From Chromera velia (taxonomy: Eukaryota): a stretch of 46,536 bases of DNA. Under the pieces are notes generated by a model, which saw nothing but the letters and a program-made list of their open reading frames with translations, did not search any database and was not told where the DNA came from. Positions 3,791 through 40,420 of this stretch are shown here, piece by piece (within the stretch, counting starts at the first letter, position 1; each line of letters starts with the position of its first letter). Location of the stretch: positions 1-46,536 of the forward strand of contig JAHBMJ010000505.1 in assembly GCA_018398765.1 (NCBI GenBank). Reading direction: 5' to 3'. The position numbers and the translations under genes were made by a program.

Positions 3791-5271
3791 CGAAGTGACA
3801 AAATGAAGGAACAGATTCCGTCTGACTGAAGAGAAAAAGACTTGAGGGGATCAGGGAGAGTTCGGACCTGCAGAGGCAGGCAAAGCAACGCTCCTCTACC
3901 TAGGAAAAAAGGATCGACGGGGACTAAGACAAGGGGGGCGTATGGGGCTGTGTCTGTAAAAGGGTCGAGAGAGGGGGTGTCTTGTTTTAATTCCCTAAAA
4001 AGGAAGAACGTCCCATATGAATTCACTGAGTGAAGCCTGAGGGACCGTCGATAAGGTTCGCCCGTGCATGCACCGCGTCGGGTCGTTGGGTAAGCAGATC
4101 ATCGAATGATCCAAAAAAGCAGGAACAAAAACATCCATAAGCTAGACAAAGAAGCATGCAAGACCTATTGAAGATTGATAAGCCACCACTTGATCCTATT
4201 TCAATGAAAGTAGGAATCAAAATGAGTTAATCAAAATAACTGAAAGTATCTTAAGTTGAACAATGCAAAATAGACTACAACAAGGTTTACGATAAGGTCT
4301 GGTACAAGGTGGTCATCAAAGCTTATTGTAATTCTAAGTGACTCTGAGTCTAAGAGGCCAGTCCAAAGTTTTTAAGCAGTGCTGGTTCATAGTAAACAAC
4401 TTCATTTTATATGATATATTCAATTGAGTTCCCCCCCTCCCCGGCCCTTCCTCACAAAAAATTAAAGTGCTAGTTAAAGTGAAAGTATAAAACACAGTTA
4501 ATTAAGACAAATTAGACCATATGAAATTTAAGCATTTTTATGTATACATGTTCTTTTAAAGTGTACAGTTTTTTTTTCATAAGGATTTTGAAGAAAAAAA
4601 CTAGAATACACATTTATTATTATCATACGTCATCGCCATATTGGCCTATGAATAGGCGTTTAGCATTTGGCGGCAATGTACAAGGCGCAGTTCGGTTCTT
4701 TACAACAACACTAGCAGCAGCAGTTCACTTTGATTTAATATATACTTAATTTAACGAGGATGCTTATTTTCAAACTCTTCTACTTCCGGAGCAGCATGCT
4801 TATACATGTTGCTGCATGAATGATGCTGATTCCTACACTGATTCAGGGGACATATAGTCAGCACATGTCAGCATTGTAAAGCCTTAAACAACAAAAACTC
4901 AAACAAGCTTTCTTTTTTTATCTGTTTTAATTTTTTTTCTAACTTTCTTAAATTTATAAGTGCAAATCGAATCTACATCAAAGGTCCAATCTAAGTAGCG
5001 CTTAAACGATTGGCCAAACCGGTTTTGTATGGACTGTCTAGCATAAATATATCGTTCAAACTTAGGTTCAAACATAAAAAAACATCTTTTTAGAAACATC
5101 TATAGCACTTGACGGAAAAGTTTTGGGAAAACCTAGTGAAAAACATAAAACCGCCAATCGATTACGTTCATCATCCTAACAAAGCTTGGTGTGTATATAT
5201 AAAACTCAAACAAACTTTCTTTTTTTTTTCTTTTTTGATTTTTCTTTTTTTAGAGTATATCCTTAGAGTAA

Positions 5272-5313
5272 CGCATGCGGGCGGCGGCCCCGGCATCAAT
5301 AACCCCCCCCCCC
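5272..5313 (+). repeat. Left terminal inverted repeat
   Basis: Reverse-complement match to 11471-11510. Confidence 0.88.
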
Positions 5314-5482
5314 GCCCATGGTGGCACCGGACCGGAGACTTAATTCTGATATCAACAGTCTCTCAGCACAACCAGTTTGAGTCTCTTCAAGTAGCTTTAG
5401 TGAAGTGTCTTGACCCTCACGGTACTTTTTTTTTCGAAAAAACGAGCAGGGGCGGTTCTGGAAGTCCCTTTTTCCTCTTGTC

Positions 5483-7024
5483 ATGTCTGAAGATGCTTTT
5501 CAGAGGGCAAAGGAGTTTGGGAATGCCACCCAGCTCCTCAATGCTGATTCCCTTCTAGTTGTTAGATTGAAGGGGACATCAGTTCGGTTGGCTCCAAGCA
5601 CTGAGCGCGATCTAGAGGGCGCGGTGCAGAGAGGATTAATCAGCTGTACGGCCAGAGTCCATTCGTTTGTTGTTCGACATGTTGTTCTGTCTCTGTTCCG
5701 AAGGACAAGCATTGGGCCGCGGGAGAAGCCTAGACGGGTTCCCATCCTCTCCGCCCTCAGGACAGTGGCCACGGAAAGTATGTGGTAGCGCCTACAGCCC
5801 AGACGGATGTATGAAAAGAATTGGCGGTGGGCCTTCAAGTGTATGACCCAGGGGCAGAAGGGCGTCCTCATACTGTCTCTTAAGTACTATTTATTGCAAC
5901 TGACTGGAAAGTTTGAGGCGATATTTTTGACCAGAGAGGTCCTTTGGGGATACATCGGGGGGGAGGGGGGGACTGAGAGGTCGAGAGAGTTGCGTCCTCT
6001 TTGGAGAAGTTGGACAGAGACCCACTTTCTCTAGGTAGTGGCGCCTGAGAGGGTCCCGACTGATAACTTCTGAAAGATGGTCAGTCTGTCTGCTGGCCTT
6101 CTGGCGCCTTCTGGGGCTAGTATCCCCTTACCACTGCTTGCATGTAAAGACTCATTTGACTTCTGTTTCTCTTTCTGTGTTTTCTGTGCAGATGGACGCC
6201 CCCCTCATCTTCGTTATCCGTGGGGAGGCCCTGACTTTTTTGTTTGGAAAGGCAAGGCGGGAGCTAGGACTGGGGGTCCACCTTAAGGACATCTTTGGGG
6301 CCTCGTTCCCCGCGGGGCCTGTGTAGAGAACAATCGACGCCATGCTCTACATCGTGATGGAGAGCCTTGCAAGCCAAGGACGGGTTGACGTGGGGCTGTC
6401 GTACACCATCCAGAATGTCCTCCAACCTTCCGTCCCGACTCCTTCTTCTGCTCCCATCCCGGCTCCTTCTGATGACCAAGAGATGCCTCAGGTTGGTCAG
6501 CTAGTTAGGTTTTGGAGCTGGCATCACCTTATCACTGCTTGCATTGATGCAGTCAGCCAGTCGGCTAGTCAGTTAGTCAGTAATTGAGAGATCAATGACA
6601 TGCATGCATGTGTTTCTCAGTTGAGTTGAGTTAGTCAGTTTCTGGGCTAGTCAGGTTGCATATGTTAGCTCATAGTTCATAAATGAATGCAATGTTTACT
6701 CATACATAAATGCAGACAGAGGCGCAGGGACAGACTGACGAGCACAGAGACGAGCACCCTCTGCATGAAGGTACGCGCCATCACCTTTTTGATATCAAGT
6801 ATCGAAAAGGCATAACGTCTGGTCGTGCTTTCTCCATCACATACAGTACACTGATAGTCACACTGACAGTCACACTCACACGTACTCGATCACGTACATA
6901 TGTAGGCGCTGTGCATTCAAATTCATACTCACACTTGCACTTGCATGAACGTGCAGACACGTCAGGAATGGACGTGGACGATGAGGAAATCGATGCCGAG
7001 GAAGGGCTTGGATCTTACCCCTGA
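5483..7024 (+). pseudogene. Transposon partner gene of unknown family, ~340 codons; exons 5483-6079, 6192-6491, 6716-6770, 6957-7024
   Basis: ORFs 5483, 5807, 6138 and 6342 join through phase-compatible GT-AG introns. The only disruptions are point stops (TAG 5786, TAG 6032, TGA 6071, TAG 6324), with no frameshifts. Acidic C-terminus. Confidence 0.65.
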
Positions 7025-7040
7025 GTCAGTCATACATACA

Positions 7041-10000
7041 TCAACCCATGTCAACATCTCCCTCTTCCTCCCCTTCTGATTCACTTGCTTGCACTTCCTC
7101 TCCCTCTTGTCCTCTCTCGCCTCCTTTATCCTCCATATCCCCTTCTTCCCCCGATTCTCCCCCCTCCCCTTCGGAATCGATTTCCACAGCAGGAGGGGCC
7201 TCAGACTCGCTGTTCGAAAGAGCTTCCACAGGAGTCATCTCATCCTCTGCAATCACATCCAACCGAGTCTTCCCCATGCCATCCACCCGTGCGTTGATGC
7301 TTGTGTCATTGATAGCAAGGAAAGCCCTCAGAAGGTTGCGAACAGCAATCTGTGTGCCTGTGTCTCCTTGTGTGTTGGGGAGGGGTTTTGCTCCGTGACT
7401 TGCAGCACCTGTGGGGGCAAAAGCCTCTGCAACCATTCTATTGAATGCCTTATATGCCTGCATGCTGAAGTACTTTACGAAAGATCGGTAGTAGTAAAGG
7501 AAATAGTAGAAGGATTCGAGAAGATAGAGAGTGGCTGGGTACTGCTGTCCTGGGTGCATTTCAAGCCACACCCTCTTGAAGTCACGAACGGCTTTGGGGT
7601 AGCGAGCGATGTTTTTGTCGGAGGGGGCTGTTTGTCTGAGGGTGTGGAGGCAAAAGAAGAATGCAGAGAGACCTGAAAGCACTCTGTCGGTCTGTGGGTA
7701 TCCTGCAAGCGCCATCATGTTTTTATGCTCTTTTGAGAACACGATACAGTCTCTCCCTTGCAGTGAAAAGTCTGGCCACCTCTACTCTCCTTCGTCCAGA
7801 ATGGGCACCATTGTGGTTCGATTTCGAATGATCTTCTGCCTAAATTCATCCTGCAGACAATAAAAGGTTTTTCGTTCATACTTCCCATCTGCTGTGCAGT
7901 TGCATAGGTGGCCACAGAGGGTGGTGGTTTTTGCTTGAATGTCTGTTGCTTCAGTCGCATCATTCCACTCCTCCCCTCCTTCCATTTCTTCTTCTTCGTC
8001 TGCTCCTGCGGCAACGGCCGCTCCCTCCCCCCCTGCCCCCCCTTTACACTGCTCGCACTTGCACTTTTCCTGCTCCCACATATACGAGCGCAGCCCCCTT
8101 GTCACCGCCTCTGTCCCCCTCATTGCGAAGTGCAAACAGTCAGGGCAGACATGCTCGCCAAAACAGGCAGGCCAGAGAGACTCGCGCAGGGAGCCTATTT
8201 TCTTTTTGGCACAGGTCGTCGTGTGAGACCCAGGCCTCTTCTGTCCCTGCTTTGTGTTCTTGCAGTTGCAAGGCTTGGAGACCAATTCTGCATGTTTTTC
8301 TGCTGTGCGTGTGAACGGTGCAAGAAAGTAGACACCAGGCATGGGGTGGTTAGGGCACCCGACGAGCCGGAAACGGAGGACCTCCTCTTTGCGGAGAATG
8401 CAACTGCAGTCTCGTCTGACTCCATGTCTTGAACAAACTCGCTCTTTTCGTGACTTTGCATTTAATGTGTTCACGATGCATAAACATGCCTTCCTAGGAT
8501 AGAAAGGCATATTCTTCTCGCATGTTTCAAGCTTTTCAATCTCTTCTTTACTATCTAGGGTGAAATAGGAGGGGAAACTCCCTATGGCCCCCACAGTTCC
8601 GCACATTTTAGCAAAAGCGGACTGATCAGCTGTCCCCCACCAGGTCACTTTCACCTTTTTTCCCTTATACGGTCCGTCAGGCACCTCCACTCCCCCATTG
8701 ACTGTATTGATCCCCTCTAGCAGCTCTTTTGACTTGAAAAGAGCTTCTAGGGTATCCCTCTCCTCCTGCTAATTAGCTAGGCCAACGCAGAAAGAGAACT
8801 CTTTAGAAAAGAGCGCACGAAGAGAACCTGAGAGCGGACGTACAACGATAGAAATACAGGCCCCCCCGGCTTTCAGCCTAGTGGCCCGATTCCCATCGAC
8901 TGACAGACACAGTTCAATGTTGACAACCTCCTCTTCGATCTCCTCCTCGATCTCAAGACCTTCAGAAGTAGTCGTTGTGACGGTTCTCTTCTCCTTAGTG
9001 ATCACGCCGTTCTCTATGAGGAACTCGTAGCCATACTTGTCACTGAGAAGAATGTCGAGAAGGACCTTGATGTTACCAATGAATGGCTGGAAATAGTCAT
9101 TGTGGGACTTGCCAGTAAACTTCTTTACAACCTTCTGGAGGACTCTGCTCATTGATTTAAAAAAGCCAGCCTCCTTCAGTTTCTTTTGAAGTTCCGTGAG
9201 AGGGGCAAAAATCTGTATGTATATATTATAAAACATGTAATTTGATTTATATATTCTATCTAAAAGATATGTACGAACAGTTAAAAACCAATCGGCAGAT
9301 GATCATAATGGGACAAATGAAAACCAGTCAGCAAATCATGATGGTGGGACAAAAAGAAAAGAAGTTTTTGTTGGGACAAAATTAAATAATTAAAAGAATC
9401 ACATATAAAATTTTTTTTTTTCAGGTACGCCGCCCTACGAACCTCTTTCACAGAAGGAATGGAGGAGTCCTTCAGAAAGTTTTTCGACCGTTGCACTTTA
9501 GAGCGAGACAGACCCTCCTTCAACACAAACGCTGTCCATTCGTCGGGGGTTTTGGGGACTGCTCTAAATTCATGAAACTTTTTCTATAAGCACCGGCCCC
9601 TCAATCTGTTTACACGCCTTTCCCTTCCTGCTTTGTATCTCTGGTAAGAGTAGAGCCCAGACCTGGATTCTCTTTCACAATCTGTCACTCTCACTCTAAC
9701 ACTGCCTGTCCCGACATCATACCCTGCGGTCACCACCTTCTCCGTTTCTATAACGCTGGCCGACGTCACAAACGAGACTGCTGCACTTGTCAATGCGTCG
9801 GCTCTTTCCTCTGCAGGCAGCGTGGCGGTCCCGAGCATCTGATCCCATAAGCTTACCGTAGTCCGATGCAGAGTCTTGCAGAGGTCTTTGCCCTGCCTGG
9901 CATGTCTCACGGCAAAGAGATCTCTTACTGGCTTCTCCCTCTTTCTGGATCCGACCCTAGTCCAGTCATTCATAAATGCAATCGTCTTTGCTTGAGACCT

Positions 10001-11274
10001 CTTCGCCTTCTGCTCATTCTCCCCTCCATCTGAGCTCTCCAATTCTCCTTCCTCCGGAATGGTGTCTAGGAAAGGATAAAACCTGTCCTTCTCAAGCCCC
10101 TTGTACACGAAGTGTTTTCCCCTGGGTGTCCTTTCAAATGTCCCATCCGCTCGCCTCTTCTTGAGGTGGGGCGAATGGACAAGAGGCCGCTGACCTACAT
10201 ACATAGAAATATATATATATACAACGTTCAAGAATTGAAGGACTAAAATTCTTAATTACACAACGCTTCGCAAAGAAAAGGTGCTAAGCTCACAATAGCA
10301 CGCACAAACGTACATTCGCAGACAACCATACAGACGTACAGACAGGCAGACACCTAGACAGACAAGGCAGCTAGACATATACCATACAGACTGCTCGATC
10401 ATGCATATATTGTGACTGACCAGAGAGGTGTGGTGGTAGAGTTGGTGGCTGCCCTGCCAGACCAAAGGAAGGGCCGGCAATCTGCTTGGAAAAGGCGGCA
10501 CCGCGCGACGACGTGCTCACAGAGGCAGAAGGAGAGGCCTCACGATCGCTACCCTCCTCCCCTGAGACAATGTCGACGCCCCCCCCGTCCTCGCTCTCCT
10601 CATCTCCCCCTTGCCCCGCCTGCATCTTCCTCTTCTTCGATCGCGCCCTCTTCGTTGGAGAGGTGCATGCATGCTTCCTTCGGGCCTCGAGGGAGAGCTT
10701 GTACGGACGGCAGACTCTCATCCGGACATCGTGGAGCTCGGCCTTCTTCTTCTAGACCGAGCATCTCTGGCACGGCAAGCCAGTGGTGCCCTCTAGGCGG
10801 CCCATCCTGCTCCAATGAGAGGGGGCGGAGGAAGCCGCACGCGACAGCGAGCTTGCCGATACTGAGGCAGCCACCAAACCTGTAAGAAAGCATTGAAAAA
10901 ATCAGAAACGATGAGACAAGTGTTGCTTGCTGCAGCTTGGCATGCCTCTGAGTCGATCATTTGCAGAAACAGACGGACATCTGACATGATTTCATGTCAT
11001 ATGACTGACCACTGAGCTGCCAAAGGTCCTGGGCGAAGTCGTGGTCGTGGTCTTGGCCACGCAGATGCGAGCAGTCTTGATGTAGACGCTGCCTTCTACT
11101 CCTCCGAACACCTGGAGGGTCATCTTCTACTCTGGAAACCGGACCAGTGGTCCTCGGTGCAGCTGACTGGGGGATACCGACAGCTGCAGGCTGTCTGTCT
11201 GTCCTTGTACGACCCCTGCCTTGCGTTTGGGGGGGATCGGGCTCCTCAAAGCCCTCACCGTCTCTTCCTGACAT
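7041..11274 (-). pseudogene. RAG1/Transib/Chapaev-like DDE transposase, intron-containing, inactivated by point mutations
   Basis: ORFs 8769-9236, 7782-8690 and 7041-7742 are one frame broken by single TAG stops. Motifs follow RAG1-core order: LSVDG (D, 8895-8897), QEERDTL, GTADQSAFAKMCG (D, 8625-8627), PDCLH, LQGRDC, FSMQAY[K]AFN (third acidic residue read as AAG, 7449-7451). Upstream exons lie at about 9440-10195, 10420-10880 and 11010-11274 (boundaries approximate). Confidence 0.78.
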
Positions 11275-11470
11275 GAGAAAAAAAAACAGATCTGACCTTC
11301 AAAACTACTTCAAGACTACAAATCTCGATATTTGCATAACCAGTGGACCTTTTGGATCGCTTTCAACGCGCCGTTGTGATCAGGACAATGGGTTTAGAGA
11401 GTTGAATGCACTACTTTGATGCGTAGCCGACTATTCGGAAACATCAGAAATAAGTCGGCTATCCGGCGTC

Positions 11471-11510
11471 GGGGGGGGGGTATTCGTGCCGGGGCCGCCG
11501 CCCGCATACG
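11471..11510 (-). repeat. Right terminal inverted repeat
   Basis: Reverse-complement match to 5272-5313. Confidence 0.88.
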
Positions 11511-13159
11511 AAAACTCAAGCAAACAAACTTTAGAGTAAATCTCCTTCATGGAAAGAAAACAATGATTAAAAATTTAAAAAACAATGCGTAATTAACGTA
11601 TATCACAAAATTGTAGAGAAAGTTAAAAAAAAAACTAAACGGCTGTACACGGCTAATCCATCTTGGCCCAGTAGATTGTGATTTGCAGCAATGATTTAAA
11701 AAATCTATAAATTAATTTAGAAATAAATCTGAACAAATATCTAAATAAATGTATAATTTTTTATTTCCGATGAACTTTTTATATGAAACCTAGTATTAAA
11801 CTAGGCTTTTCTGCCGCAATGTTATATGCAGTGCTTCAAAAAGAAATATTGAAGGCTCGTTTTCTTTTCAATAAAGAAAAACGTCTTTCTATTTTTATGT
11901 ACGTCTTTTCTTTGCTCTTTCAGTTCTTCTATTATGTCTGTCCTCCTTGTTTTCTTTTTATGCAACGTACGGCCCTTCTCGTTCTCTGTCGGCCTCTCCT
12001 GAGGGTTAGTTTGGCCTGCCTGTCAATCGTAAATATTTTTCTTCGCATCTCCTTCAGGAACGGGAAGAAGAAGGAAAGACAAAACAGAATGCGATCTCAG
12101 CGGAGAGAGGGAAAGAAAGTGACGAGAAAATATGAGACAAAAGGGGAAAGTAAACGTCATACAGAAATGCTATGGATGTGCACTCAGAGTGTCACTTTGT
12201 CTGTCGTTTTGCAGGCAGCCTTCCTGGCATGACTTCTGCTGCATGAGAAGATTGAGCTGAGGCAGGCAGCTTAGTCGTAAACATTCAGACAGTCGTGAAT
12301 GGGTGACCGTCTACCATTGCCGTGATGGTCCACTCCACTCCCAGATCCTGAAGAGAAGAAAAGAGGAGAGGGAAGAAAACGAGAGGACGAGAGTTTTAGA
12401 AGGAAGACTGTCATATTGAAACGTCGATTTCGTGCAAAGCTCTTCTCTTTTCTTCTCCGTCATGAGTCTATATACGACAGCAGATTATCACTCGTTATCA
12501 CTATGCAAGTTGATGAAGGACTGTGCATAAGAGATAGCTGGGTTAAGGCTAGGAAAGTCTACAAATATAAATCATGTGATAAATGCGGATTCACGTCTAT
12601 TTTGGGTCCAACAGGTTTTATCAAGGACTCACTGAGTATCACTCTTCATCTCACTACCATTTCATCTTAGTCACCATTACTCAAATTCTATCAAATTATA
12701 AAAGTAAGGCATTGCTAAAATACGATCTCAAATGACGTATTGCTTCAAACAAAACGTGCGAGCGCTAAAGAAATCAAAAGGCAGACACACCTTAATGTTT
12801 TCCCTGCTTGATGGTTTTTTTGCTCTTGTAGGCATTCACAACGACTCACAAAGTTTGAGAGGAGAAATGAAGGACAGCACTGACTTAGAGAAGCTGAAAG
12901 CAAAGAAAAAGATCTACAGATCCACACGAAATTAATACAAGGATTGATTGAAGCAGCACCGGTAACTTTTCAATGTTTTCATCTGGAACTCTGCGGAAGA
13001 GAGAATGGCTGCGGAGAGACAGTTTCTCGCTCTAGTTATCGACATAGGATCAAAAAACCACTGAAGTGGCTGGAAGGAAGAAAAGCGCCCCTGCCTGATA
13101 CATTGCATTACAAGTGCAAGGAAAGACACGACCTGCGTGCCTTCCAAGAGAGAGGGAGG

Positions 13160-16106: not shown

Positions 16107-17672
16107 GGTTTCTTGAAATGAACCCACATGACAGTGTGTTCCTTCCTTCCCCTCCCCTCTGCTGACATCTTCATTAAATTTTGACGTGTCTTTATAGCAC
16201 TGGGCATCCTGTGCAGATACAGGCTCGGTTTTCTTTCTCTGCAGATGGACAGGCAGGCATGTTTATATGAGCAGGCGTTCTTGTGAACATCCATTTGAAT
16301 CGGTACGCATGCTCGGATAAATGGCTGGGCTTTTCGCGCTCACCATTCCTGACAGTACGCTAGACGATGCACAAGACCACAGGCATATTGACAGATGGAG
16401 CTATATAGGGGCAGACTGATGGCACATGTACTTACGGTCCCTTCCAGAAGCACAGGCTCTTCTTTTGCCGACTTCAAGGTGCTGCGTGCCTCAGTTCAGC
16501 CCAGATTGTCCAGATGATCACCGGCATCTGAGAGATCCCCATGTAGGCCTAGCCCCAGGCACCGTGTCGGAGGCCTTCTTGACATCTTGATCCATTCTGA
16601 GGGGAGAAATAGCAAATATGTACAGCCAGTCAATCATGTATTTGTTGTCTACTTTCGTGAATCGATCGCCAGTCAGATGTCAAGATGAGCAACACCCCTC
16701 AACTTACAAAGCACTGAGAAAGACAAGAAACGCTCAGAAGAAGAACTAATCACAGAGAAAGAAAGGTAGCCAGTAGGCTTGAAAGATTGAGGGTAGATAG
16801 TGGGAGAGGGAGAGGAAAAGATGAGTGAAGGAAGACAGGGTCGAGATGACTGACGTCTCCACTTGACCTAGCTTTCTGCCCAATCGAAAGGGACAGAATA
16901 GAACGGAAGGGAAAGAAAGAAAGAATGGTCTCCCTTAGAGATAATGAGCTACATCGATCACGAGAGAACGAGCACAGACAACGAGATCAACTCATCTGGC
17001 TGAGGGAAGAAAGGAAATGAGAAAGGAAGTAAGAGATATAGAAGAGCTCGGATGAAGAAAAAAGAAAAATTGTGCATGCATGCATGCATGCAGGATACCG
17101 CACGCACTCCATACATCTCCATATATTTCCGGAGCCGATTGATCTGCAAGTGAAGGATGGACGCACAGAGGAAGGCTTGTGTCTCTCTGTCTGCAAGCGA
17201 TAAATGTGTAGCGAGAGTAAGGCTTGAGTCTTTTGTCTGCAAGCGATGAGTTTACAATGAGAAGAAGGCTCGTGCCTCTCTATCTGCTAACGAAGAATGT
17301 GTAGGCGTGTGTTTCTCAGTCTGCAAGCGATAGGTGTGTAACATCCGTAGGTAGCATCCTAGGACGTGTGGGAGGCCAGCAAAATGCAGAAGTAAGATAT
17401 TACTAAGCACAAATAAAGGTAGCTTCACGGGGGGTAGGCAAGCGAAAGGCAACTTCGCAGAGGCGAGGTAAACGGAACTTCAAGGAAAGGCAACCGGTGC
17501 GACGAAGTCAAGCTGCTGTCTGAGCAGAGATTGAGAGAGCCTAGGAGAGAGCTGAATGTACATACTGCTGACTGAACCAAGAGTGAAAGAGACAAAGCCA
17601 TGTTGCTATCAGAGTAGAGTGTGAGGGTGGACTATGCCATGTACTGACCGAAAGAGAAGCTGGAAGGCTGAG

Positions 17673-17945
17673 GAACGGTGCTACCCGAAAGATGATCTAA
17701 AAAGGTAAGGGGGCAGTGCTGCTCCAAAGACGATCCAAAAGGGCAGATGGACGGTGCTCCCTCCAAGAAGATTAGAAAGGGCAAGGGAACGGTGCTGCCC
17801 CAGAGCAGATCTGAAAAGGTAAGGGGATGGTGCTGTCCCAAAGAAGATCCGAAAAGGCGAGGCCCCGAAGAAGATCGGAAAAGGCGATTGGACGGTGCTG
17901 CCCCGAAGAAGATCCGAAGAGGCGAGAGGACTGTCCTGCCGAGAG
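17673..17945. repeat. 38-bp minisatellite, about 7 degenerate copies
   Basis: Consensus near GGACGGTGCTGCCCCGAAGAAGATCCGAAAAGGCGAGG repeated head-to-tail, one copy truncated. Confidence 0.85.
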
Positions 17946-19036
17946 AAATGGACCTGAAGAGGCAAAGAGAACGCAAGACTGTATTAGTGGAGCGAATTCT
18001 GATTCTGAGCTCGTGAAAGAAATTCTGAGAGGCAACGTATCCATTCAAGCTGCATGTTACGATGTGGCATCGCAGTAGCAGATTAAAATGTACTCACCTT
18101 GGTGAATAGTCGCCGTCCGAATGTCTGTGATTCCGAAGAGGAAGGAGAAGCAAAGGCTTACGAAGCCGTAACTGGACAGCAATGGTCGGACTCTGCATGC
18201 ATGAGCCAAAGGATGAGAAGCTGCTTCCCTCTGCCTGATGAGACGGAGACTCTTGGAAAGAATCTGAAGGATCAAGAGCCTGGGAGCTAGGCGTGAGGGA
18301 GTCACCTGAGTGAGGCTTTCCTCTGATAGGGCCATATCTGGCTGCAGAAAAATTCTCAGGCTGTAGAGTGTCATCTGGCTCTGACGGAGAGCAAAGGGGG
18401 GCAGTTGTGCCCAGGTTTGAGGAGAAAGGCAACCGCGAAATCTTAAGAAGTCTGTCAAGGACCTTCGAATGATGCCGACGGAATTCTCTAAGGCCAGATG
18501 TGGCCTTAAACGTGGCGAAGGCCAAAAAATTTTGGAGGCCTGATGAAGCCTTGAAGGTGAGTGAGAGACTTGGGAGTGGATATTCTTTTCCTTCGTTCTA
18601 TTCGAAACTGCTTGGATCGCGGTAGCATTCTATGTTGAGACGACTGAATTTCAGTGTATATAATTTCAGTGAAGGTCCGTGGCAAATTCAGAGCCTGCAT
18701 GGCCCCATGCGCGAGCGCTAAATCATGGCTGACGCACGCGGAGGCTGCCTTCGCCCAGCACGCGTGCAGGTTATATCTGAAAAATTCTGCACGATCGAGC
18801 TAGACTGTCTGAGGTTGTCTCATGCAGAATGTCTGAGATCATTGCCCCCCATGCAATTCCCCTCGCAACATCGCCTCGGCATCGATCGTTTGGACGTTGT
18901 GCTTGCTGGCATGATTTCAAGCAACTCAGAAACCAAAGAACCTGAAAGACTCCAAGGGACTGGGACGAGACGGCTGCATGGCTCCTTTTCTGACCGAAGT
19001 TGAACCTTCCCCTTACTTTTCATTCGCTTTGTCTGC

Positions 19037-20309
19037 ATGATGGCCTCGAAGGCAAAAGTGTCGCCCGTGCCCGTGGCGGAATCTTTTTTTAGGGATGGAG
19101 AGCTGGATGCAGGGAGTGCGGCGACTTCTTCAAGTGCAATGCACAGAATTGTACCTAGGTAGGTCATTCTCCCTGCGTCTCCTCAACTTCCCGTCTCCCG
19201 TTCTGCAACCTGCTCACTGCACGCATGCATGTCTTCTCGCACTTGTGTGCAGGATTTATCTGGGCTCTGCGCTCGCGGCCCGAGACCACCAGTCCCTGAA
19301 GCGCCAAAACATCAAACACGTGGTCATCGTGCATCAGTCCTTCGAACCTGTCTTCCCTCACGACATGCGATACGAGACGTGTAGGTGCGGCGACATTATG
19401 TGGGAGTCCATCCTGCCCCACGTGGCCACGGCACTGGAATTCATACACCAGGCCCTGAGCGCGGATGACTCAGGGGGTGTGCTTGTGCACTGCTCCAAGG
19501 GCATAAGCCGCTCTGCCTCTGTTGTGGTGGCCTATCTGATGTGGACCCGCAAGTGGTCTTTCCGTCGCGCTTTGGATTTCGTTCAGGAGAAGCGGAACGT
19601 GCACCCGAACGTGAGCTTCCAGTCTCAGCTCCGGTTTCTGCAGAGGCTGATGGGCATCGAGACAGGGTTGGAGGGGGGGGGGGGGGGAGGGGGAGGGGAG
19701 ACGAAGAACGGAGACGGCGACACAGATGCAGAGACAGGCGACCTGGAAGTGCTCGAGAGAATCCGGAAAGAGGGGGACAAATTGAAGGGGGACAAGGACA
19801 AGCTAAAAAATATGATGGAGGTGAGAGACAAAGAAAGAAAGAGGGTAAAAAATGCCAGGTACAGGTGTATGTGCAGGTGTAGGTGCGTGTGTGTTCATGA
19901 AATCTCTCGTCTCTGCACCTTCCTCCTGTCCCTTCACGACACTCTTGTTCTGTCTAAGTCTTCCTCCTTCTCTGTTGTGTGTTCATCTCTCTCTTCGTTC
20001 TTTTTTTCAAGGGCTACAAAGATATCTTCTTGACATGAAGAGAAAACTTATCTGGACGGAATGAACCCTTTGTGTCTTCGGAGTCCCTCACTCTGTCCTT
20101 CTCGATCTCTCTGTTTTGTTCTCTGCCCGCCTGCCTGCCTGCCTGCCTGCCTGCTTGCCTGTCTGCACCGCTGTGTGCCCGCGCTTTGCATCTGCCCCCC
20201 CCCCCCCNNNNNNNNNNNNNNNNNNNNNCCCCCCCGGCCTTCCCCGTTGTCTTGCTGTCCAGATCCGACCTATGCAGCTAGCTGTTTTGACGCTCAGCTA
20301 TGTGCGTGC

Positions 20310-25989: not shown

Positions 25990-26001
25990 GCTCTGCTACC
26001 A
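25990..26001 (-). promoter_or_regulatory. Primer-binding site, initiator tRNA-Met type
   Basis: TGGTAGCAGAGC abuts the 5' LTR and matches the widely used iMet PBS TGGTA(T/G)CAGAG. Confidence 0.8.
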
Positions 26002-26357
26002 CCTAACGAGGTGGCTTCGTGATGACGCTCATAAGTAGTAAGTCTCTGTCATGTACAGTCACTGTCAGTCAGTACTCCAATCTCTTGGGTTCAACGTAAA
26101 CAACAGATGACTTGCTATTGACTGCATGCAAGCATTATTAATTCTGCATGCATGCTGTATAGTGCGCTCAACGTCGCACCCACCGTAGACGTGGTTCTGA
26201 CATAAATGCTTGTCATCGTCACAGTGCAACCACCACAATACTACGAGCGGGAAGCATGTACAAGGAATTAATTGAACATTTAACTGAACCGAATGTATTT
26301 AATTTGTGATCATCAAAAAAATTAAGGATTTGATAAATTAAATTGAGCTTCACAGCA

Positions 26358-26430
26358 TGATGATTGAGGGTTAATTTTGTCATGCATGCCGCGTCCCCAT
26401 ATATAAGGGGCGGATCTAGCCTAGTTTGTC
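26358..26430 (-). repeat. ~70-bp 3'-terminal fragment of the same LINE family
   Basis: Aligns with 35780-35850 (TGATTGAGG..CATGCCGCGTCCCC..GGGGCGGATCTAGCCTAGT). Confidence 0.75.
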
Positions 26431-26744
26431 GATTTGTTTAGTTCTATTGAGCCGAGACTTCTTTTGCTATGACGCTCTATAGGCCGTGTGCATGCTGTAG
26501 CGCTCTATTGGCCGTGCATGATATCTGAACAGTTCTGCGCGTGGCCCCCGTCCATCTATATTGGTATGCATGTATGCGTTCACATATTTCCGGACATGCC
26601 GTAGCCTTGAAAATGTTCATGCATCGTATCGCACATACGTGAAGCAACAGTGCAACAATGCCGTCTCATCATATTCAATTTCCGTTCTCATTGTATGCAA
26701 TACAGAATCGAATTTATATATTCGATTGAATCGATCGATCGAGT

Positions 26745-29640
26745 GACTGTGAGGAGGCTGTGCGTACGTGTCCAGTCTGTCCTGCAGTCAATGCGGTGAA
26801 GCGACAGATTGGGAGTCGAGACGACTCTGAGCAGAACAAGCATCCCTTCAACTACAAGATCTTTCAGGACTTGACAGAGATATACGACAAAGGAATAGGT
26901 GGATTCGTCTACCTCTCTGTCATCGTTGACAGCAGCAAGCGCTTCAAGTCCCTCATGGCACTCACTACCAAGGATACCGCCCTCGATCACCTCATTGCCT
27001 GGACTGCCAAGTGGGGGGCACCCACCTGTGTCTGCACAGACAACGGTGGGGAGTTTATCAACCACGAGTACAAGAAGTTCTGTCGAGAACGAGGCATCAC
27101 ACATCTGACTGGGCTCGCGTACACTCCGGCAGTTCAGGGCATCGTCAAGAAGGCCAACAGAGAGATTAAGAAGGTGATGAAAAAGTTGCTTGATCAGTAC
27201 AAGTTCCCTCATTCTACCTGGCCCGCACTCCTTCCGGGTATGTGCTATGCTCTAAACACCACTGTACATTCAGTGTTGGGTGAGTCACCGTTCAAAGCTG
27301 TCTATCGCCGTCTTCCCCCCATGCACTCACTTCTCGTTGGCATACCCGTGCTTGCTTTTGATCCAAAGCCTCGAACGAAATCATTGTTTCTAAGGGGTGA
27401 AGTGGGCATTTTTGGGGGCGAGTGGAATGAGTCTTCCTACTCTGTTCTTGTAAAAAGAGAAAACAGATGGACAGCTTTGCGTCTGCATCCTGAGGCTCGC
27501 TACGTTCGTTCTGTTCACTCCTTTACTGCCTCTCATCTGCTTCCACTGCCGTCTGTTCCTGTGTTAACGGAAGTTGTCAGTGGTGATAGTCCACAGGAAG
27601 ACGAGTCGCATGCACACAGAAACAGAGAACAGACATCCATTGAGCTTCAGCCAGGTGTCGGTGTCTTTGCTTCTTTTGAGCATGGAGGTCCCACTTTCCC
27701 TGCTATCCTTGTTTGAGTCATACGTGCATCCGTTGATGTCTTTTTCTTGACAAAGCTTGATGGAATGAAAGGATGGAAGCGAGGAGAAATTGCTTATCTG
27801 CCGAAAGGAAATATTTCTTCTTCTTTCCCTCTTGAGGACGGTGAGCCTCCTCTCCATCTATCTACCTCTGAGCCCTCCGTGGCTTTAGGGGGCGGGCTAG
27901 GGGGCGGGGAAATGAATGTCTCTCTTTTTGAAGCCGCTCCATCTCTAAATAAACACATGGATGAGCCAGAGGCGGTCGATGGGGACTGGATCTTCCCTCC
28001 AGATCAGGAAAGGGAAGTGAAGATTGCTGACCTCTGCAAGCTCGTTGAGATGGCTGCCTCCGCTTAGGCAGTCAAAGTCCCAAAAAGTCATGTACCTGCG
28101 ACGAAAGAGGAGATAGCAAAGGGTGATTTCGATGAGTTAATCCTCATTGAGATGCGCAAGTACAAAAAAAACCTTGCCATCTACGTCATGGAGAAGGGAG
28201 AGATGCCTCCTGACTTCGACAAGGCCATTCCGATGCACTTTGTCCTGATGTGGAAGCTCAAGGGCAACCGCCAAGTTCCTAAAGCATGCCTCGTTATCAT
28301 GGGTCATCGAGATTCCATGGTGATCGAGACCTTCTCTGGCACTCCCGATCCTGGCCTCGTCAGAGCAGCTATCATCTACGCCCTTAGCAACTCCTTCGCG
28401 TGCGCTAAGTCTGACGTGTCCACAGCTTTCTTACAAGCCCCCATAGATGTGGGGAAGAAAGTCTACATCAAGCTCCCCACCGAGATTCCCGCTATCATGA
28501 CTGAAGAGCTTCCGGAGTACATACCGGGGGCGATTGTAAGTGCCAACAACGCCCTCTACGGATTGAAGTGGAGTCCACGCGTCTCTACTAAGTGGTTCAA
28601 GTCCAAGGCGAAGAAGTTTAGTTTCGAGCAGGCAAGCGAGTCTATCCTCGTTTGCAGAGATCCTTCAGGAGAGATCGATACCATTTTGATCATATATGTT
28701 GATGATCTTTGGGCATGGGGAAAGGATCCGATGGACATTCTCTATGCCATCAGGAAAGAGGTAGACATGGACCCTCCCAAGCTGCTCAGTGATGGTGCTC
28801 CACATACCTACGTCGGACAGACTGTCAGAATCATCAATAACATGCTGATCATCGACCAGACTGATTACCTTCAAGCGCTGGAATGTCTGACGGAGCTGGG
28901 GGATAAAGGAAAGAGAACTCTTCGCAGGTCTGATTTTTTCCCTTCCTCTCTCGATAAATCTGTTAATCCCTTGCTTGTCTCTCAGTATCAGTCATAGATA
29001 GGCAAGTTAGGATGGGTGTGTCGTACTCTGCCTGCCTATGCATTCGTATTCTCGTCCCTTTCACGATTCAATACCAAACCGACTGACCGATTGATTAATA
29101 CCCTTCGTCGTGTGATTGTACATGCACAGCTTTATGCAAAGCCTCTTGTCTTTGTCCGTCTGTTGTCCGTCCCTCTCCTTCGCGTCTGGTCAGATCTAGG
29201 GTCAGATGCATCTTTTTCTCTCAGAGAATATTCTGCACAGATAGGATTTGAGATTCAGTTGTTGGAGAAAGATGCTTCTCTGCCAAGCAAGAAAGAATGC
29301 AACACTGTTTTCTGGAAGTCACGTTCTCTGAAAGTGAAAGTCAGCTCAACAACTTCGGCTGAACTGATTGCTCTGCGCGATGTGGTTTAGGATATGGTGA
29401 AAGCTGCCTTTGAGTACTTTTGTTTTGTAGAGACGATGTGGAAAGCCAAGCCAACAGTTCAGTTCATTCTTGACTTTCAACCTCTGCTTGCACAGCTGGT
29501 CTCTGGTCGTGCCCATTCTGATCCCAGTCAGCAAGGCATGCTTGAGTTTATGCTGCAATGCAGAAAGGAAATGAATGCAGAGTTCGTGTATACGCGTGCG
29601 TGTCCCGACAGACGAGATGAGAGCAGATAGAATGACGAAG
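26745..29640 (+). pseudogene. Copia A pol remnant (integrase, reverse transcriptase, RNase H)
   Basis: CPVC, FQDL, IVD, TDNGGEF, GIVKKAN (integrase); SDVSTAFLQ, LYGLK, IYVDDL (RT); VWSD..ASF, SSTTSAEL (RNase H). Scattered in-frame stops. Confidence 0.93.
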
Positions 29641-30707
29641 TGTCTTCTGTCCGAGTGAGACTGTGAATTAAAAGAAGAATTAAAGAAGAAACGGCAAGCT
29701 GATAGTGATTGAGCGTTCTTTGTTTGTATGTTTCTTTTTCTTCATCTTCCTCTTTACATGTCTTCATGATTCTGTTCTTTTCCTTTTCTTTTCTTCGTTT
29801 CACTTTTACTCCCATATGACAAGAAAGTGAATGAAAGCATTTCATGCAATTTCATGCTTGTTGTTCGATTCTTTCTCGCAAGCTTTGTTTTCTTATTTCT
29901 TATTATGATTGATCTGGTCCTTCGCCGAAGATTGAAAGCTTTTGGTTATTTTTTAATCATTAATGCTTCAGTGAAGTAAGCCTGTCTTGCATGTGCATCC
30001 ATTGTGTCTGTTTGTGTTATGAATGTCAGTCAAGCATTACTCGTATCGTTGCAACGACACTCAGGGGGCGATCTGTTGAGCCGAGACTTCTTTTGCTGTG
30101 GTGCTCTATAGGCCGTGTGCATGCTGTAGCGCCCTATTGGCCGTGCATGATATCTGAACAGTTCCGCGCGTGGCCCCCGTCCATCTGTATCGGTGTGCAT
30201 GCATGCGTTCGCGTATTTCTGTGAATGTGATGGTCGGGGCGGGGCTGACGTGCGTGGCCCGATCAGATACCGCAGCGTGAATTCCTGGGGGGCCACGGCA
30301 TACGCGAGCGTGTGGGGGCCACGTGTTTTGCTGAGGAGACGGAGTTGATTCAGACTGATTGATCTGATGGCTGTGTGATTGAGAGTTGTCAGTCTGTTGT
30401 CGTACATCAGACAGTGCAGATCGTAAGATAAACAGACACCGCGCGTTTTAGACACACGTTCTCGTAGGCAGCTTATGTGCGTGTCTCGTCTCCAGCCTGA
30501 ATTAATTGAGGCTTCTAGATTGATCAGCAAAGGAACCTCTCGGAAAGGGAGCAATGCATACGGTGAGTTTGAACAGACCCTTATGTATCGTGTGCGTTGA
30601 GCAGCGGCAGCCTTCTAAACGTCTGAAAAACATTCACACCGTCATAATTTGGTGTTCTCCACGCGGGCTCAAACGTTTCGTTCTCTTTTTGTTGCAGACG
30701 TCTCGAA

Positions 30708-31781
30708 ATGCCAGGAGACAACTCCCAGGTTCCTGCAGCTGCCGGTGCTTCCCCTTCTCCTTCCAAGCCCCATGACTTCAACTGGGTGAACGAACTGAAC
30801 TCCATGGAAGGTTTTGAACTTTGGAGGAGAGAGTTCCTGAAGTTTGCCAAGTTCCAGCTCAAGGCCAAGTTCATTCCGGATGATGATAAGAGGAAAAAGC
30901 TCTGGACCCTGGTGTTATTGCGTGCTTTCAAGAAGTTCGACGACTTCAAAGACAGCATGCTCACCATCAAAGAGCAGGAGCAGAAGTTTGGGGAGGATCT
31001 TCTCGCCGTTGTCGCCGTTACGATTCTTGATCCCAAGGAATCGGAGCGCAGACAGTTCGAAGAGAGGTACATTGCGATGAAGAGAGAGAGGAGAGACGAC
31101 CTTTTCCAGGCCCTGGTGAAGGAGGACAAGCTCCTTGCCAAGGCAAAGGTGAAAGGCTACAAGCCTGATCCTTCCACTCAAAAGCGCACTCTTGAGAAGA
31201 TGTACTTGAATAAGGAGTGGCTGGATGGAGTGAGGAGGGCAGCCAGTGAATTGAAGAAGGAGTCCGATGCTCTAACGTATGCCGAGATCCATCCCCGTCT
31301 CGTCGAGGATGCCAAGATCCTCCATGGGAAGAGGGTTAGCAGGCAGGTGGAGGAGTCGTCCAAGCCTAAGACGACCCCACCTCCCAAGTATCAGGAGTTT
31401 TCTGGGGCGGCAGAGGGACGTGCGAAGAAGGGAAAGAAAGGAAAGGGGAAGAAGGGCAAGAAGGAAGTGACTCCCTCCCATGACGCCAATGCTGCTTCGT
31501 CCAGCAGCTCCCCATCCGGTCCCTCCAGTTCCCGCTGCTCCAGCTGCAGGTTTGTGCATAGGGGAGAGAAATGCCCTGCCAAGAACGCTACCTACGGCAT
31601 GAAAAACACGCCTGGGTGTGGGGAGAAGGGACATTTTGTGAGCTGCTGCCCGAAGAAGAGACAGCAGGGGAGAGAGGCCGCCGGGGCAGCGATTCCACGA
31701 GTCTCCGGCACCACCTTTGATATGAGAAAGGGGGATGAATGGGACGAGATGTCCTCCTCCTCTGCCAGTTCGGGTTTGTGA
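30708..31781 (+). CDS. Gag of Copia B
   Basis: 357-aa ORF directly after the PBS, with a C-terminal zinc-knuckle-like CGEKGHFVSCC preceded by a second Cys/His cluster. Confidence 0.85.
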   Translation: MPGDNSQVPAAAGASPSPSKPHDFNWVNELNSMEGFELWRREFLKFAKFQLKAKFIPDDDKRKKLWTLVLLRAFKKFDDFKDSMLTIKEQEQKFGEDLLAVVAVTILDPKESERRQFEERYIAMKRERRDDLFQALVKEDKLLAKAKVKGYKPDPSTQKRTLEKMYLNKEWLDGVRRAASELKKESDALTYAEIHPRLVEDAKILHGKRVSRQVEESSKPKTTPPPKYQEFSGAAEGRAKKGKKGKGKKGKKEVTPSHDANAASSSSSPSGPSSSRCSSCRFVHRGEKCPAKNATYGMKNTPGCGEKGHFVSCCPKKRQQGREAAGAAIPRVSGTTFDMRKGDEWDEMSSSSASSGL

Positions 31782-34700
31782 GTATCCCTGCCTTTGGGGG
31801 GCAAAGCAGCTCTTCCCCGGAACGCAGGGCAAATTCCAGAAGAGCTGCAGGGCGGGGGGGGTTCATTCGAGCCACCCTCCGTAACGCTGAGAAGTTTGCT
31901 GATGATGAGTTTGATGAAGTGGTGGAGAATAGACCAGTGCATCCTGTTGCGGCTTTTCTTGTCGCTTTCGTAGGAGAAGAGGAAGACAACTGTCAGTCGG
32001 GATTGACTGACAGTGGTTGTTCTTTATCTCTTTTTCCTCCTTGCTGTGAGAAGTTTGTTGTGTTGGAAGAGAGTAGGACAGTGCAGTTCCGTCTCGCTTC
32101 TGACGTTGCAGGCCTCTAGAGTGATAAGGTAAAGACGTGTCACCTCCCCGTTAAAGACAAAACGGGGAGGGTGCGTCTGGTACCTGAAAAAGCCGTCATT
32201 CACTCGTCCGTTGGTCGTGCTCTTTTCGCGTGTGCAAAGAAAGAGCTTTATCTTGGGAGAGAAAGTGGGAGGCCGAGTTGGCTGAGACTTACTGACATCG
32301 ATGGCAATCGTTTTGTTACGCCTGTTGATCAGTCTCGTTCTGTTCCTTTTGTTCTCTTTTTTGAGACTGAGGTGAAAGACTGATGGGGGGTGGCGTCGGC
32401 ATACTTGAGGAGGAGTGCAGACATGGCAGTTCAGCCAGCCAAGTCTCTTCATTCTTGTTTTTTCTCTGCATGTGCGGGGGAAGGGAAAGATGAGACGTCT
32501 CTTTCTGCAGAAAATAGAAAGCATCTCCTGTATGTGCTGCATTCTCATCTTGTGCACGCAACGGGGGAGCGACTCCTTTTGACGTTGAGAGAGAAGGGGG
32601 TCGGTCTCTCATACAGCCTGCAAGAGTGCAAGGATGTGCGGAGGGAGTGTAGGGCGTGTCGGAAAGTCAACTTCCGCCGTCGACGTTTGAAGCGTCGGGG
32701 GTGGAAGGCCAAGAAGCGTGGAAAGAGAAAGAGGGCTGGGGTAGAGGAGGCGCCCTCCGGAGTGGGGGGTGACGATGAGAGCGAGGGGAGTGACGAAGAG
32801 TCGTCTTCGGGGGACAGGCATCCCTCGGAGAAGTTCAACAGGATCATTTACCACAACATCAAGAACATGAAGAAGAAGGGTTACGGGGGGTTCAGATATA
32901 TCTCCGTGATTGTTGATTGGAAGTTCCGTTGCGTCTCTCTGAAGGCCCTTTGGTCGAAGGACCATGCAGAGAGGCACCTTCTTTCGTGGATCCGCCGTTG
33001 GGAGGTTGCTGGTTTCGGAAAGCCTCTGATTGTTCAGTCAGACAACGGTGGGGAGTTTTTAGGAGAGGAAAGGTATCTTTGGGTGTATGAAAATGAGGGG
33101 GTTGATAATGAATTTGGCCCGCCAGGCACTCTTGAGGTTCAGGCATTCGTAGAGAGAGCCAATTTGACCTTCATTTCTCTTTTGAACAAATTTTTATTGC
33201 AAGCACGCATTCTATTTTTCATGTGGCTGGCTGTCTTGCCGGGTGTTGCCAATGCACTGAATGATGTGGTACACAATTCGATCGGCCGTTTTCCGAATGC
33301 GTGTGTGTTTGGTCGGCCGTCTGGCATTCCCTCCATTTTTTGCGGTGATGTCGTGCGCATCACTGACCCTTCTTTCCGTCATTCCTTGCCCTTCGAAAAG
33401 AGTGAGCGTGTTCTTTTCGGGGGGGTAATAGGGCCGAGGGTCGTTTTGGTTCTTTTCTGCCGGGGAGGGAGATGGAAGGCACTGCGGGTCCATCTATTTC
33501 ACATCGTTCTAGAAGAGTGGGTTAGCGTAGGAACAAGAGACTTTGATGCCGACCGAAGGGGAATAGATGGAAGGAAGGAGCAGGAGATTCCCAGCAGAGA
33601 GTCAGACGGAGACTTCTGGGTTAGGTGGGATGCCGATGATGACCGCACAGATGGGGTGGTCGGGTCTGATGATGCGTTGTCAGACCATATGGATGCAGAG
33701 GGTGAGTTGCCTCCTGTAGATCCACCCAGAGGTGTTCGTTCCTCTGTGCTGAAGGGCGTTCTCGCGAGAGAGTCCAACGGCGCCCTCTTCCCTGCTCAGA
33801 TAGATAGAGAGGGGGAACAGCAGTTGAGGGGGGTGAGCATTGCAAGACTGAAGAAGCAGGAGGATGGTTCTTTTCGTCTTACCGAGTTTGATCGAATCGC
33901 ACAGAAAGACATCGTGGAGCGTTTTAATCTGCCTGCCGAGGGCAGACTCCCCGAGTCTATTCTGCAGCGCCTTGCAGAGGAGGCTCCACAGCCAGAGCCC
34001 CCAGTCCCTCAGCCTGTCACTGAGAACTCCGATCCCGTTGATGTTGACTTTCCATCCCCCGTTGATGGGGTGGTAGAGCAAGTTGCCAAAGAAGCGAGAG
34101 CAGCTGAGTTTGTTCGTTGGTCACAGATGACAAAGAAACAAAGGAAAGCAGCAGTGAGGGAGAACAGAGAGAAGCGATGCAAGTTGACAGAGAAGCGGAT
34201 CAGCAAGGCAATGGACATGCACTTTGAAGTCGCGTGTGCCGTCCTGAAAGCAGAGAGAGCGAGAAAGCTTTTGCAGAGAGAGAACAAAGCAAAAGGACAC
34301 ATTTTGGCCACCGAAGAGGAGATAGAGCAAGGTCTCTTCAAAGAGGCAGATCGGAAAGAGCTGGTTCGGTGGTGTGTTTGTTCTGTTTTTGATTTGTCTT
34401 CGCAGACTTTGACTCCCCAGCCGGGGGTGAAGGGTATCACCCTCCGTTGGATCCGGACGTGGAAGCTGAAGGAGGGGAAGAGAGTTGCGAAGTCAAGGCT
34501 CGTTGCCCGGGGGTTTCATGACCCTCGAGATTCAGAGCTTCTCGAAACCTACTCCGGGACTGCAGATGCAGGCCTGACAAGGGTTGCGTTTGTTTGGGCC
34601 CTCAGTCGGGGGTGGTAAGCAGCGAAGGTCGATGTGTCGACTGCCTTCCTGCAGGCTCCGATCGGTGAAGGTGTGTGGCTTCGTTTGCCTAATGACCTGC

Positions 34701-36650: not shown

Positions 36651-37449
36651 GAACGTTCTGGTGTTGGCGTTACGTGCAGTCACATTCTATGCATGCGTGC
36701 ATGAATGGAATTCATGGGGGGTGATTGTGAATGTGATGGTCGGGGTGGGGCTAACGTGTGCAGCCCGATCAGATACCGCAGCATGAATCCCTAGGGGGCC
36801 ATGGCATGCGCGAGCGTGCGGGGGCCACGTGCTTTGCTGAGGAGACGGAGTTGATTCAGACTGATTGATCTGATAGCTGTGTGATTGAGAGTTGTCAGTC
36901 TGTTATCGTGCGTCAGACAGTGCAGATCGTAAGATAAACGGATACCACGCGTTTTAGATACATGTTCTTATAGGTAGCTTGTGTGCGTGTCTCGTCTCCA
37001 GCCTGAATTAATTGAGGCTTCTAGATTGATCAGCAAAGGAACCTCTCAGAAAGGGAGCAATGCATACGGTGAGTTTGAACAGACCCTTATGTATCGTGTG
37101 TGTTGAACAGCGGTAGCCTTTTAGATGTCTAGAGAACATTCACACCGTCATAATTTCTGAACATGCCGTAGCCTTGAGAATGTTCATGCATCATATCGTG
37201 TATGCGTAAAGCAACAGTGCAACAATGCTGTCTCATCATATTCAATTTCCGTTCTCATTGTATGCAATACAGAATCGAATTTGTATATTCAATTGAATCG
37301 ATCGATCGACTGATAGAATTGATTTACAATTTAAGCATGTGGATCTAAATCAATTTAGCTAATTGATTTGATAGACTTGTATGACTTACAAGTGTCTGTA
37401 CGTTTGCATATATACTATCAGACCTTCTGAATATCTTACCAACAATTGT

Positions 37450-37522
37450 ATGATTGAGGTTTTTATTATGCATGCCACGTCCCCGTGTATGAGGGGTGGA
37501 TCTAGCCTAGTCTGTCAAAAGG
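37450..37522 (-). repeat. ~70-bp 3'-terminal fragment of the same LINE family
   Basis: Near-identical to 35780-35852 through GTCAAAAGG. Confidence 0.8.
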
Positions 37523-40092: not shown

Positions 40093-40420
40093 AGAGAGGA
40101 CCCTGGTACGAAAGATTGAAGAGCGTCTGTCATGCAGTCAACTCCTGCATAGATCATGGGTGCGCAGTTGGAGGGGGAAGGGAGGGAGTGAAGAGAGGTA
40201 CGAAAGATTCAGGAGCGTCTGTCATGCAGTCAACTCCTGCATAGATCGTGGGTGCGCAGTTGGAGGGGGAAGGGAGGGAGTGAAGAGAGGTACGAAAGAT
40301 TGAAAAGCGTCTGCCATGCAGTCAACTCCTGCATAGATCATGGGTGCGCAGTTGGAGGGGGAAGGGAGGGAGTTAAGAGAGGTACGAAAGATTCAGGAGC
40401 GTCTGTCATGCAGTCAACTC
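40050..40420. repeat. 92-bp tandem repeat, about 4 copies, first copy overlapping the stop codon of the upstream gene
   Basis: Units start at 40050, 40149, 40241 and 40333 (AT(A/G)GATCATGGGTGCGC..GCAGTCAACTCCTGC). Confidence 0.92.

Follow-up and report, generated by a model that had tools for sequence, protein, structure and literature searches.

Organization of the Element

The sequence analyzed here, referred to as the window, comprises positions 1 to 46,536 (46,536 nt) of contig JAHBMJ010000505.1 from the alga Chromera velia (assembly GCA_018398765.1). Between positions 5272 and 11510 it contains a DNA transposon in which terminal inverted repeats (TIRs) enclose two spliced, convergent genes, a transposase gene on the minus strand and a second gene, here called the partner gene, on the plus strand (Table 1). 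The outer TIR arms are complementary at 36 of 40 nt; across 40 word-shuffles of positions 4500–12500, no 40-nt inverted match exceeded 28. The two stop codons are separated by 16 nt. This layout had been proposed in an earlier interpretation made from the letters alone (the sequence-only reading), and the arms, the splice joints and the gene models bear it out.

Splice joints were read from the contigs of two likely-RNA runs and compared with those of two DNA runs. The RNA nature of the former is a program guess (no listed run is recorded as RNA), and their lack of cover at 8604–9335 says nothing about expression. The likely-RNA contigs contain the joints of all three plus-strand introns (GT..AG) and of two of the three minus-strand introns (CT..AC when read on the plus strand), none of which occurs in the DNA runs. 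The third minus-strand intron (9213–9442), for which no joint was seen, is placed provisionally because of its GT..AG ends and the collinearity with the paralogue P0015, which reads PDPKDVFGPL where the gene model has PSVKE/IFAPL. The start codon of the transposase gene is likewise a putative placement.

Table 1. Features of the transposon and of further repeats in the window (positions of the window; P-numbers denote homologous proteins).
Feature	Position	Strand	Remarks
Left TIR, outer block	5272..5311	+	40 nt; initial CG possibly target duplication, terminus then 5274
Left inner block GACTTAATTCTGATAT	5337..5352	+	65 nt from terminus; palindrome with 6-bp arms, 16-nt spacer
Partner gene	5483..7024	+	exons 5483-6079, 6192-6491, 6716-6770, 6957-7024; 339 aa; homologues P0003, P0004, P0017
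Read-through splices past partner stop	7025..9816	+	donor right after stop, acceptors 8266 and 9817
Transposase gene	7041..11274	-	exons 11274-11010, 10879-10421, 10194-9443, 9212-7041; 1215 aa
Catalytic Glu position, residue 1080, SMQAYKAFN	7449..7451	-	Lys in this copy; from paralogue comparison
Cys-rich insertion, CKCEQC, acidic linker, CGHLCNC	7880..8070	-	conserved in family B, 28-34% identical
Candidate second catalytic Asp, D688 in TADQS	8625..8627	-	RAG1 structural match ends there (model 193-196 / RAG1 707-710)
Candidate first catalytic Asp, D598 in SVDG	8895..8897	-	SIDG in P0015; ends long predicted strand
Right inner block GACTTATTTCTGATGT	11441..11456	-	54 nt from terminus; palindrome with 9-bp arms, 20-nt spacer
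Right TIR, outer block	11471..11510	-	final CG possibly target duplication; 11508 likely private G>A
Ty1/copia remnant domains	rve 26730-27713; RVT_2 28068-28994; weak rve + RVT_2 in 32384-34615		Pfam scan
gag-like ORF with zinc knuckle	30648-31778		
Diverged repeat pairs	23283-23529/26002-26248; 30220-30650/36726-37156; 26586-26746/37153-37313; 26443-26590/30072-30219; 15405-15553/15958-16106; 35780-35853/37450-37523		

The Transposase and Its Relatives

All of the motifs SVDG, QEERDTL, TADQS, DCLH, QGR and SMQAYKAFN, which the sequence-only reading had aligned with the core of RAG1, the recombinase of antibody genes, are present and occur in the claimed order. They include two candidate catalytic Asp residues and, 392 residues after the second of them, the position of the catalytic Glu. 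Six proteins contain this last motif, and four of them (P0002, P0010, P0015, P0018) have Glu where this copy and P0006 have Lys, so that the guess of a Glu-to-Lys change is confirmed by the paralogues. In place of the CxxC zinc ligands the protein has GSFPSYFTLD, the codons of which are not one transition away from Cys at both positions. The HxxxH motif is found only in a second family, termed family B, and is replaced by TLYLLES in P0001, P0006 and P0018. Family B carries H(3)H, its gene models lack the C(2)C region, and its SLQGR, TLHRLEH and QAHEAFN occur in RAG1 order. The Cys-rich insertion is likely to form a new metal site.

The full-library search returned six proteins among 1.84 billion representatives, and no protein from outside Chromera with detectable sequence similarity was found in this set. 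Sixteen cluster members are listed, and all 11 that have a species label belong to C. velia, which points to this alga as the likely host; a profile search added two further C. velia proteins. These relatives form three tiers, namely near copies (88–99% identical), a second subfamily (47–85% by segment) and family B (28–34%). Family B, to which P0015 belongs, is thus a second transposase family within the same species which keeps HxxxH. Pattern searches gave two matches in viral contigs and 591 in metagenome contigs, the latter with a poor acidic pattern, and no relative in either.

The element is clearly repeated, as read depth over most of it exceeds the depth of the unique flank contigs several-fold, although depth does not equal copy number. 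Three joints in the DNA runs represent internally deleted copies. At two further loci, homologues of both genes are numbered consecutively (Cvel_14643/14644 and Cvel_4995/4996), from which we infer that they are adjacent there. About 30 Mb of transposable elements (TEs), including 7.6 Mb of class II, have been reported for the C. velia genome in the accessible part of PMC4501334. The strings Transib and CACTA do not occur in 12 of the 16 supplements of that article; the other four may list TE families. A search confined to the literature revealed no RAG1-like element from alveolates and no Transib from Chromera, and the titles and abstract beginnings retrieved for C. velia DNA transposons were unrelated.

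Among the 43 structure entries listed for the low-confidence transposase model, six are RAG1 or HzTransib and lie in register in both halves of the model. Of the families among these entries, RAG1/HzTransib alone matches both halves of this poor model, by a weak collinear match, and chains of hAT, P or Mutator are absent from the list. A wide structure search with the same model was uninformative, so that the absence of other families from it excludes nothing. Pfam scans of the transposase, including its exons 2 and 3, and of its paralogues gave no relevant family. PDB sequence searches yielded only chance rows, and RAG1, Transib or Chapaev sequences were returned by no sequence search.

The Partner Gene

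Residues 1–199 of the partner protein are predicted to form mainly helices, plus three short strands close to the N-terminus (low-confidence model; predicted local distance difference test score 41). The last 80 residues form a low-complexity, acidic, disordered tail, which leaves about 260 ordered residues. Since the 339 residues include two Cys and two GG pairs only, both of the latter at 159–163, the protein has no PHD finger, for which two Cys do not suffice, and shows no kelch periodicity; together with the predicted helices and the empty Pfam scan, this points away from a six-bladed kelch propeller. The search for homologues returned two of 79 candidates, both from C. velia and 87–89% identical. 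A Pfam scan of the partner gave no relevant family, and an Atlas search with residues 1–150 of its homologue P0004 gave no usable match. Fold searches with the low-confidence model were blank, and the missing RAG2 there excludes nothing.

A donor (GTCAGT) abuts the partner stop codon, and the plus-strand acceptors used by the read-through transcript lie inside, and antisense to, the transposase gene. The joint 7024>8266 was present in two likely-RNA runs from two studies and the joint 7024>9817 in one run; neither occurs in the DNA runs. For a third joint, which ends near 8323, no clean GT..AG was seen. Regarding the role of the partner, we tentatively put a regulator or cofactor of the transposase first; passive cargo and, slightly behind it, an anti-silencing role are weaker possibilities.

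Element Ends and Possible Target Duplication

The ends read CGCATGC or, two bases further in, CATGCGG. The outer CG (5272–5273, 11509–11510) is self-complementary, so it could belong to the inverted repeat or represent a 2-bp target site duplication (TSD). If it is the duplication, the termini are CATG..CAT(A), and if 11508 is in addition a private change of this copy, the element has CA..TG termini with a 2-bp TSD. CA..TG termini and a TSD of 2–5 bp are given as the clade-wide rule for the CMCT transposons in the accessible part of PMC12730594. The inference of the sequence-only reading that CG(C/T)A ends indicate a distinct family is thereby doubtful.

In both DNA runs the right flank contig begins at 11478, which would fit a private change at 11508, given that contigs break on 31-mers. 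The left single-copy flank contig stops at 5301 in both DNA runs; another copy therefore also has CG before the repeat, an observation that fits a CG-specific target and CG as part of the end alike. We slightly favor CG as the target duplication; an AA duplication outside CG..CG ends fits as well. In this copy no 5-bp TSD was found (AGTAA and AAAAC at 5272/11510, TAACG and CGAAA at 5274/11508), nor was a 7–9 bp duplication at the flanks.

Alignment of the two ends revealed an inner block, identical at 14 of 16 positions and offset by 11 nt, which in this one copy gives length-asymmetric bipartite TIRs. A match of 14/16 was reached by one of at most 300 random internal pairs. A pattern search for the inner block was circular and, with three mismatches allowed, gave no excess over chance, as two matches are reached in 30 of 100 shuffles. 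Seven loci with the TIR pattern (L001–L007) were dropped as chance matches in GC-rich DNA, with only 21–23 nt in common.

Decay of the Copy

The copy was killed by scattered C>T and G>A changes. Premature stops interrupt the partner gene at 5786, 6032, 6071 and 6324, and four premature TAG codons lie in the transposase gene (10754, 9586, 8771, 7784). Paralogues have Q, W or R at the covered stop positions; an alternative code with TAG as sense codon was dismissed for this reason and because one stop is TGA. One C>T or G>A change suffices to account for 15 of 15 differences from at least two unanimous near copies, and 130 of the 137 amino acid differences to near copies are attainable by single transitions.

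Six diverged repeat pairs of the window (Table 1) differ by 96 transitions and 13 transversions, with a ratio of 35:0 in the 431-bp pair and an enrichment at CpA and CpG. Taken together with the 15/15 polarity in the transposon, these transitions suggest a repeat-directed cytosine decay in the alga, either by deamination of 5-methylcytosine or by a process resembling repeat-induced point mutation, of which we found no report for Chromera in the literature.

Flanking Sequences

The left flank contains, at 4700–4943, a repeat of very high depth. A 46-nt direct repeat starting with AAAACTCAAACAA is located at 4894–4938 and 5201–5246, and its start recurs just right of the element; the transposon may be nested in another AT-rich repeat. 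A wider outer element with arms at 4926–4948 and 11617–11639 was dismissed, as these are AT-rich and of low complexity. Farther to the right, the window contains a tandem repeat of about five diverged copies of a 38-nt unit (17672–17947), a host dual-specificity phosphatase exon (19041–20030; PF00782, E 5e-24), two nested or adjacent remnants of Ty1/copia-type long terminal repeat retrotransposons (26000–37500), and an internally repetitive, stop-free frame of 502 codons for which no Pfam family passes the threshold (38584–40426), followed by a 92-bp tandem repeat.

Proposed Mechanism and Alternatives

With moderate confidence we interpret the locus as one dead copy of a DNA transposon that is present in multiple copies and carries two genes. 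The transposase would be a divergent RAG1/Transib-type enzyme of the CMCT clade, and the second gene is likely to encode a helical regulator that is specific to the element and not related to RAG2. In an intact copy, as the anatomy of the ends suggests, a transposase dimer would bind each end twice, at the GC-rich outer block and at the inner GACTTA-TTCTGAT block, the spacing of which differs between the ends by 11 bp, or about one helical turn, in the copy at hand. Catalysis would be of the DDE type and cleavage may proceed by nick and hairpin, a route known for RAG and HzTransib, followed by cut-and-paste insertion in which a 2-bp stagger, most probably at CG, would be made. For the partner, the most likely role is to restrain or adjust transposition. 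Its transcript, spliced past the stop codon and antisense across the transposase gene, could have a damping effect, and its protein might target the transposase or chromatin.

Several observations weigh against this interpretation and lend weight to other ones. The Foldseek comparison, which had been named as a check in the sequence-only reading, gave no significant match for the low-confidence transposase model, and the inner-block comparison comes from a single copy and lies beside a poly-C tract. The least improbable of the alternatives, though one we regard as unlikely, is a CMCT transposon that is related to RAG1/Transib no more closely than to Chapaev, Mirage, EnSpm, ESTA or Plavaka, with a recently captured cargo gene that has no role in transposition; RAG1/HzTransib would then surface only because structures and Pfam models exist for these members. 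In its favor, the best Atlas matches are unnamed animal clusters ranked above RAG1, the Asp-Glu spacing is 392 residues as opposed to 206–214 in Transib and 253 in RAG1, partner homologues are seen only in near-identical copies, and, in the sources as far as accessible, the TSD is 2 bp in ESTA and Plavaka and 5 bp in Transib and RAG. Against it stand the offset of the bipartite ends by about one helical turn, as reported for the recombination signal sequences (RSS), RAGL and subgroup I Transib, and a partner gene with three introns that are spliced out and with a transcript arising inside the left end. The absence of any significant sequence or fold match and the missing zinc-site residues of this subfamily would also agree with another long-insertion DDE superfamily of the hAT, P, Mutator or Kolobok type; the likeness to RAG1 would then be a motif reading on a poor model. 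In addition, DxxH-type motifs are common to several superfamilies. We regard this as improbable in view of the structure entries listed, with RAG1/HzTransib in register in both halves and no hAT, P or Mutator chain, of the flanks without a 7–9 bp duplication and of the RAG1 motif order in family B.

The least probable of all is a highly divergent true RAGL with an unrecognizable RAG2 homologue inherited from an early eukaryotic RAG1L-RAG2L transposon. Convergent genes as in ProtoRAG, asymmetric ends, the acidic stretch of the partner and the occurrence of RAGL in a unicellular alga (PMC9435367) speak for it, but the partner is predicted to be helical, with its roughly 260 ordered residues and two GG pairs only, its two Cys allow no PHD finger, and the element has neither a CAC heptamer nor a 5-bp TSD. 

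The claim of the sequence-only reading, a divergent RAG1/Transib/Chapaev element with its own second gene, is retained in part: the consecutive numbers of the two homologues at two further loci, the Glu seen in paralogues and the RAG1/HzTransib match in both halves speak for it, while the structural support is weak and the Foldseek result not significant. Membership in the CMCT clade is likely. A bolder version, which we consider rather unlikely, is an alveolate RAG1-type lineage that reached the RAG design independently, with a tail-to-tail two-component transposase, a helical partner replacing RAG2, a replaced zinc site, a CG-specific target and ends that pair under a 12/23-like rule with an asymmetry of one helical turn.

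Models of RAG origin hinge on the time at which a Transib-like transposase acquired a partner gene and asymmetric ends. If our interpretation is true, convergent genes and an 11-bp asymmetry together with a non-RAG2 partner would mean that such a layout can evolve in the absence of RAG2, so that layout by itself would be weak evidence of RAG ancestry. The element would also be a natural test of end asymmetry as an old property of the enzyme, and it is a DNA transposon family that had gone unannotated in a free-living alga closely related to the apicomplexans. Its value is reduced by the dead copy and the weak structural support.

Comparison with Known Systems

With RAGL/ProtoRAG (BbeRAG1L-RAG2L, PflRAGL-A and AanRAGL of Aureococcus) the element shares the TIR-bounded pair of genes, convergent as in ProtoRAG. 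A DDE core of the RAG1 type, in which one more acidic residue lies between the two Asp as in the DEDE tetrad, is predicted for it and would be a further likeness. The tail-to-tail likeness to RAG1/RAG2 and ProtoRAG noted in the sequence-only reading thus holds for the layout but stops short of the partner protein, which by sequence is not kelch-PHD. Asymmetric bipartite ends have been described, in the accessible literature, for RSS, AanRAGL (4/13 spacers), PflRAGL-A (10 bp) and subgroup I Transib, compared with 11 bp here. In contrast to RAGL, the ends start with CATG (or CGCATG) instead of CAC, there is no 5-bp TSD, the inner block lies 54/65 nt in and thus much deeper than the nonamer, the zinc-site CxxC and HxxxH are missing in this subfamily, and there are long Cys-rich insertions and introns in the genes.

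Transib (HzTransib, PDB 6pqn/6pqy) has in common with it the weak collinear structural match of both halves, the motif order and terminal repeats of about 40 bp. According to the accessible part of PMC1131882, which also gives the Asp-Glu spacings cited above, Transib has one gene, a CACAATG heptamer with an A-rich nonamer, a 5-bp TSD and SxxCxxC, whereas the element has two genes, GC-rich ends and no SxxCxxC. It resembles a Transib/RAGL-type transposon, yet departs from both in heptamer, TSD, zinc ligands and partner. Within the wider CMCT clade (EnSpm/CACTA, Mirage, Chapaev, Transib, Plavaka, ESTA, as well as Lanisha; PMC12730594), this subfamily stands out by having neither C(2)C nor H(3-4)H, and the accessible part of that article mentions neither a CG target duplication nor such a partner protein. 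As far as that part describes the clade, the element agrees with it in the DDE order, the DxxH-type His, the H(3)H of family B and, if the outer CG is the duplication and 11508 a private change, in CA..TG termini with a 2-bp TSD.
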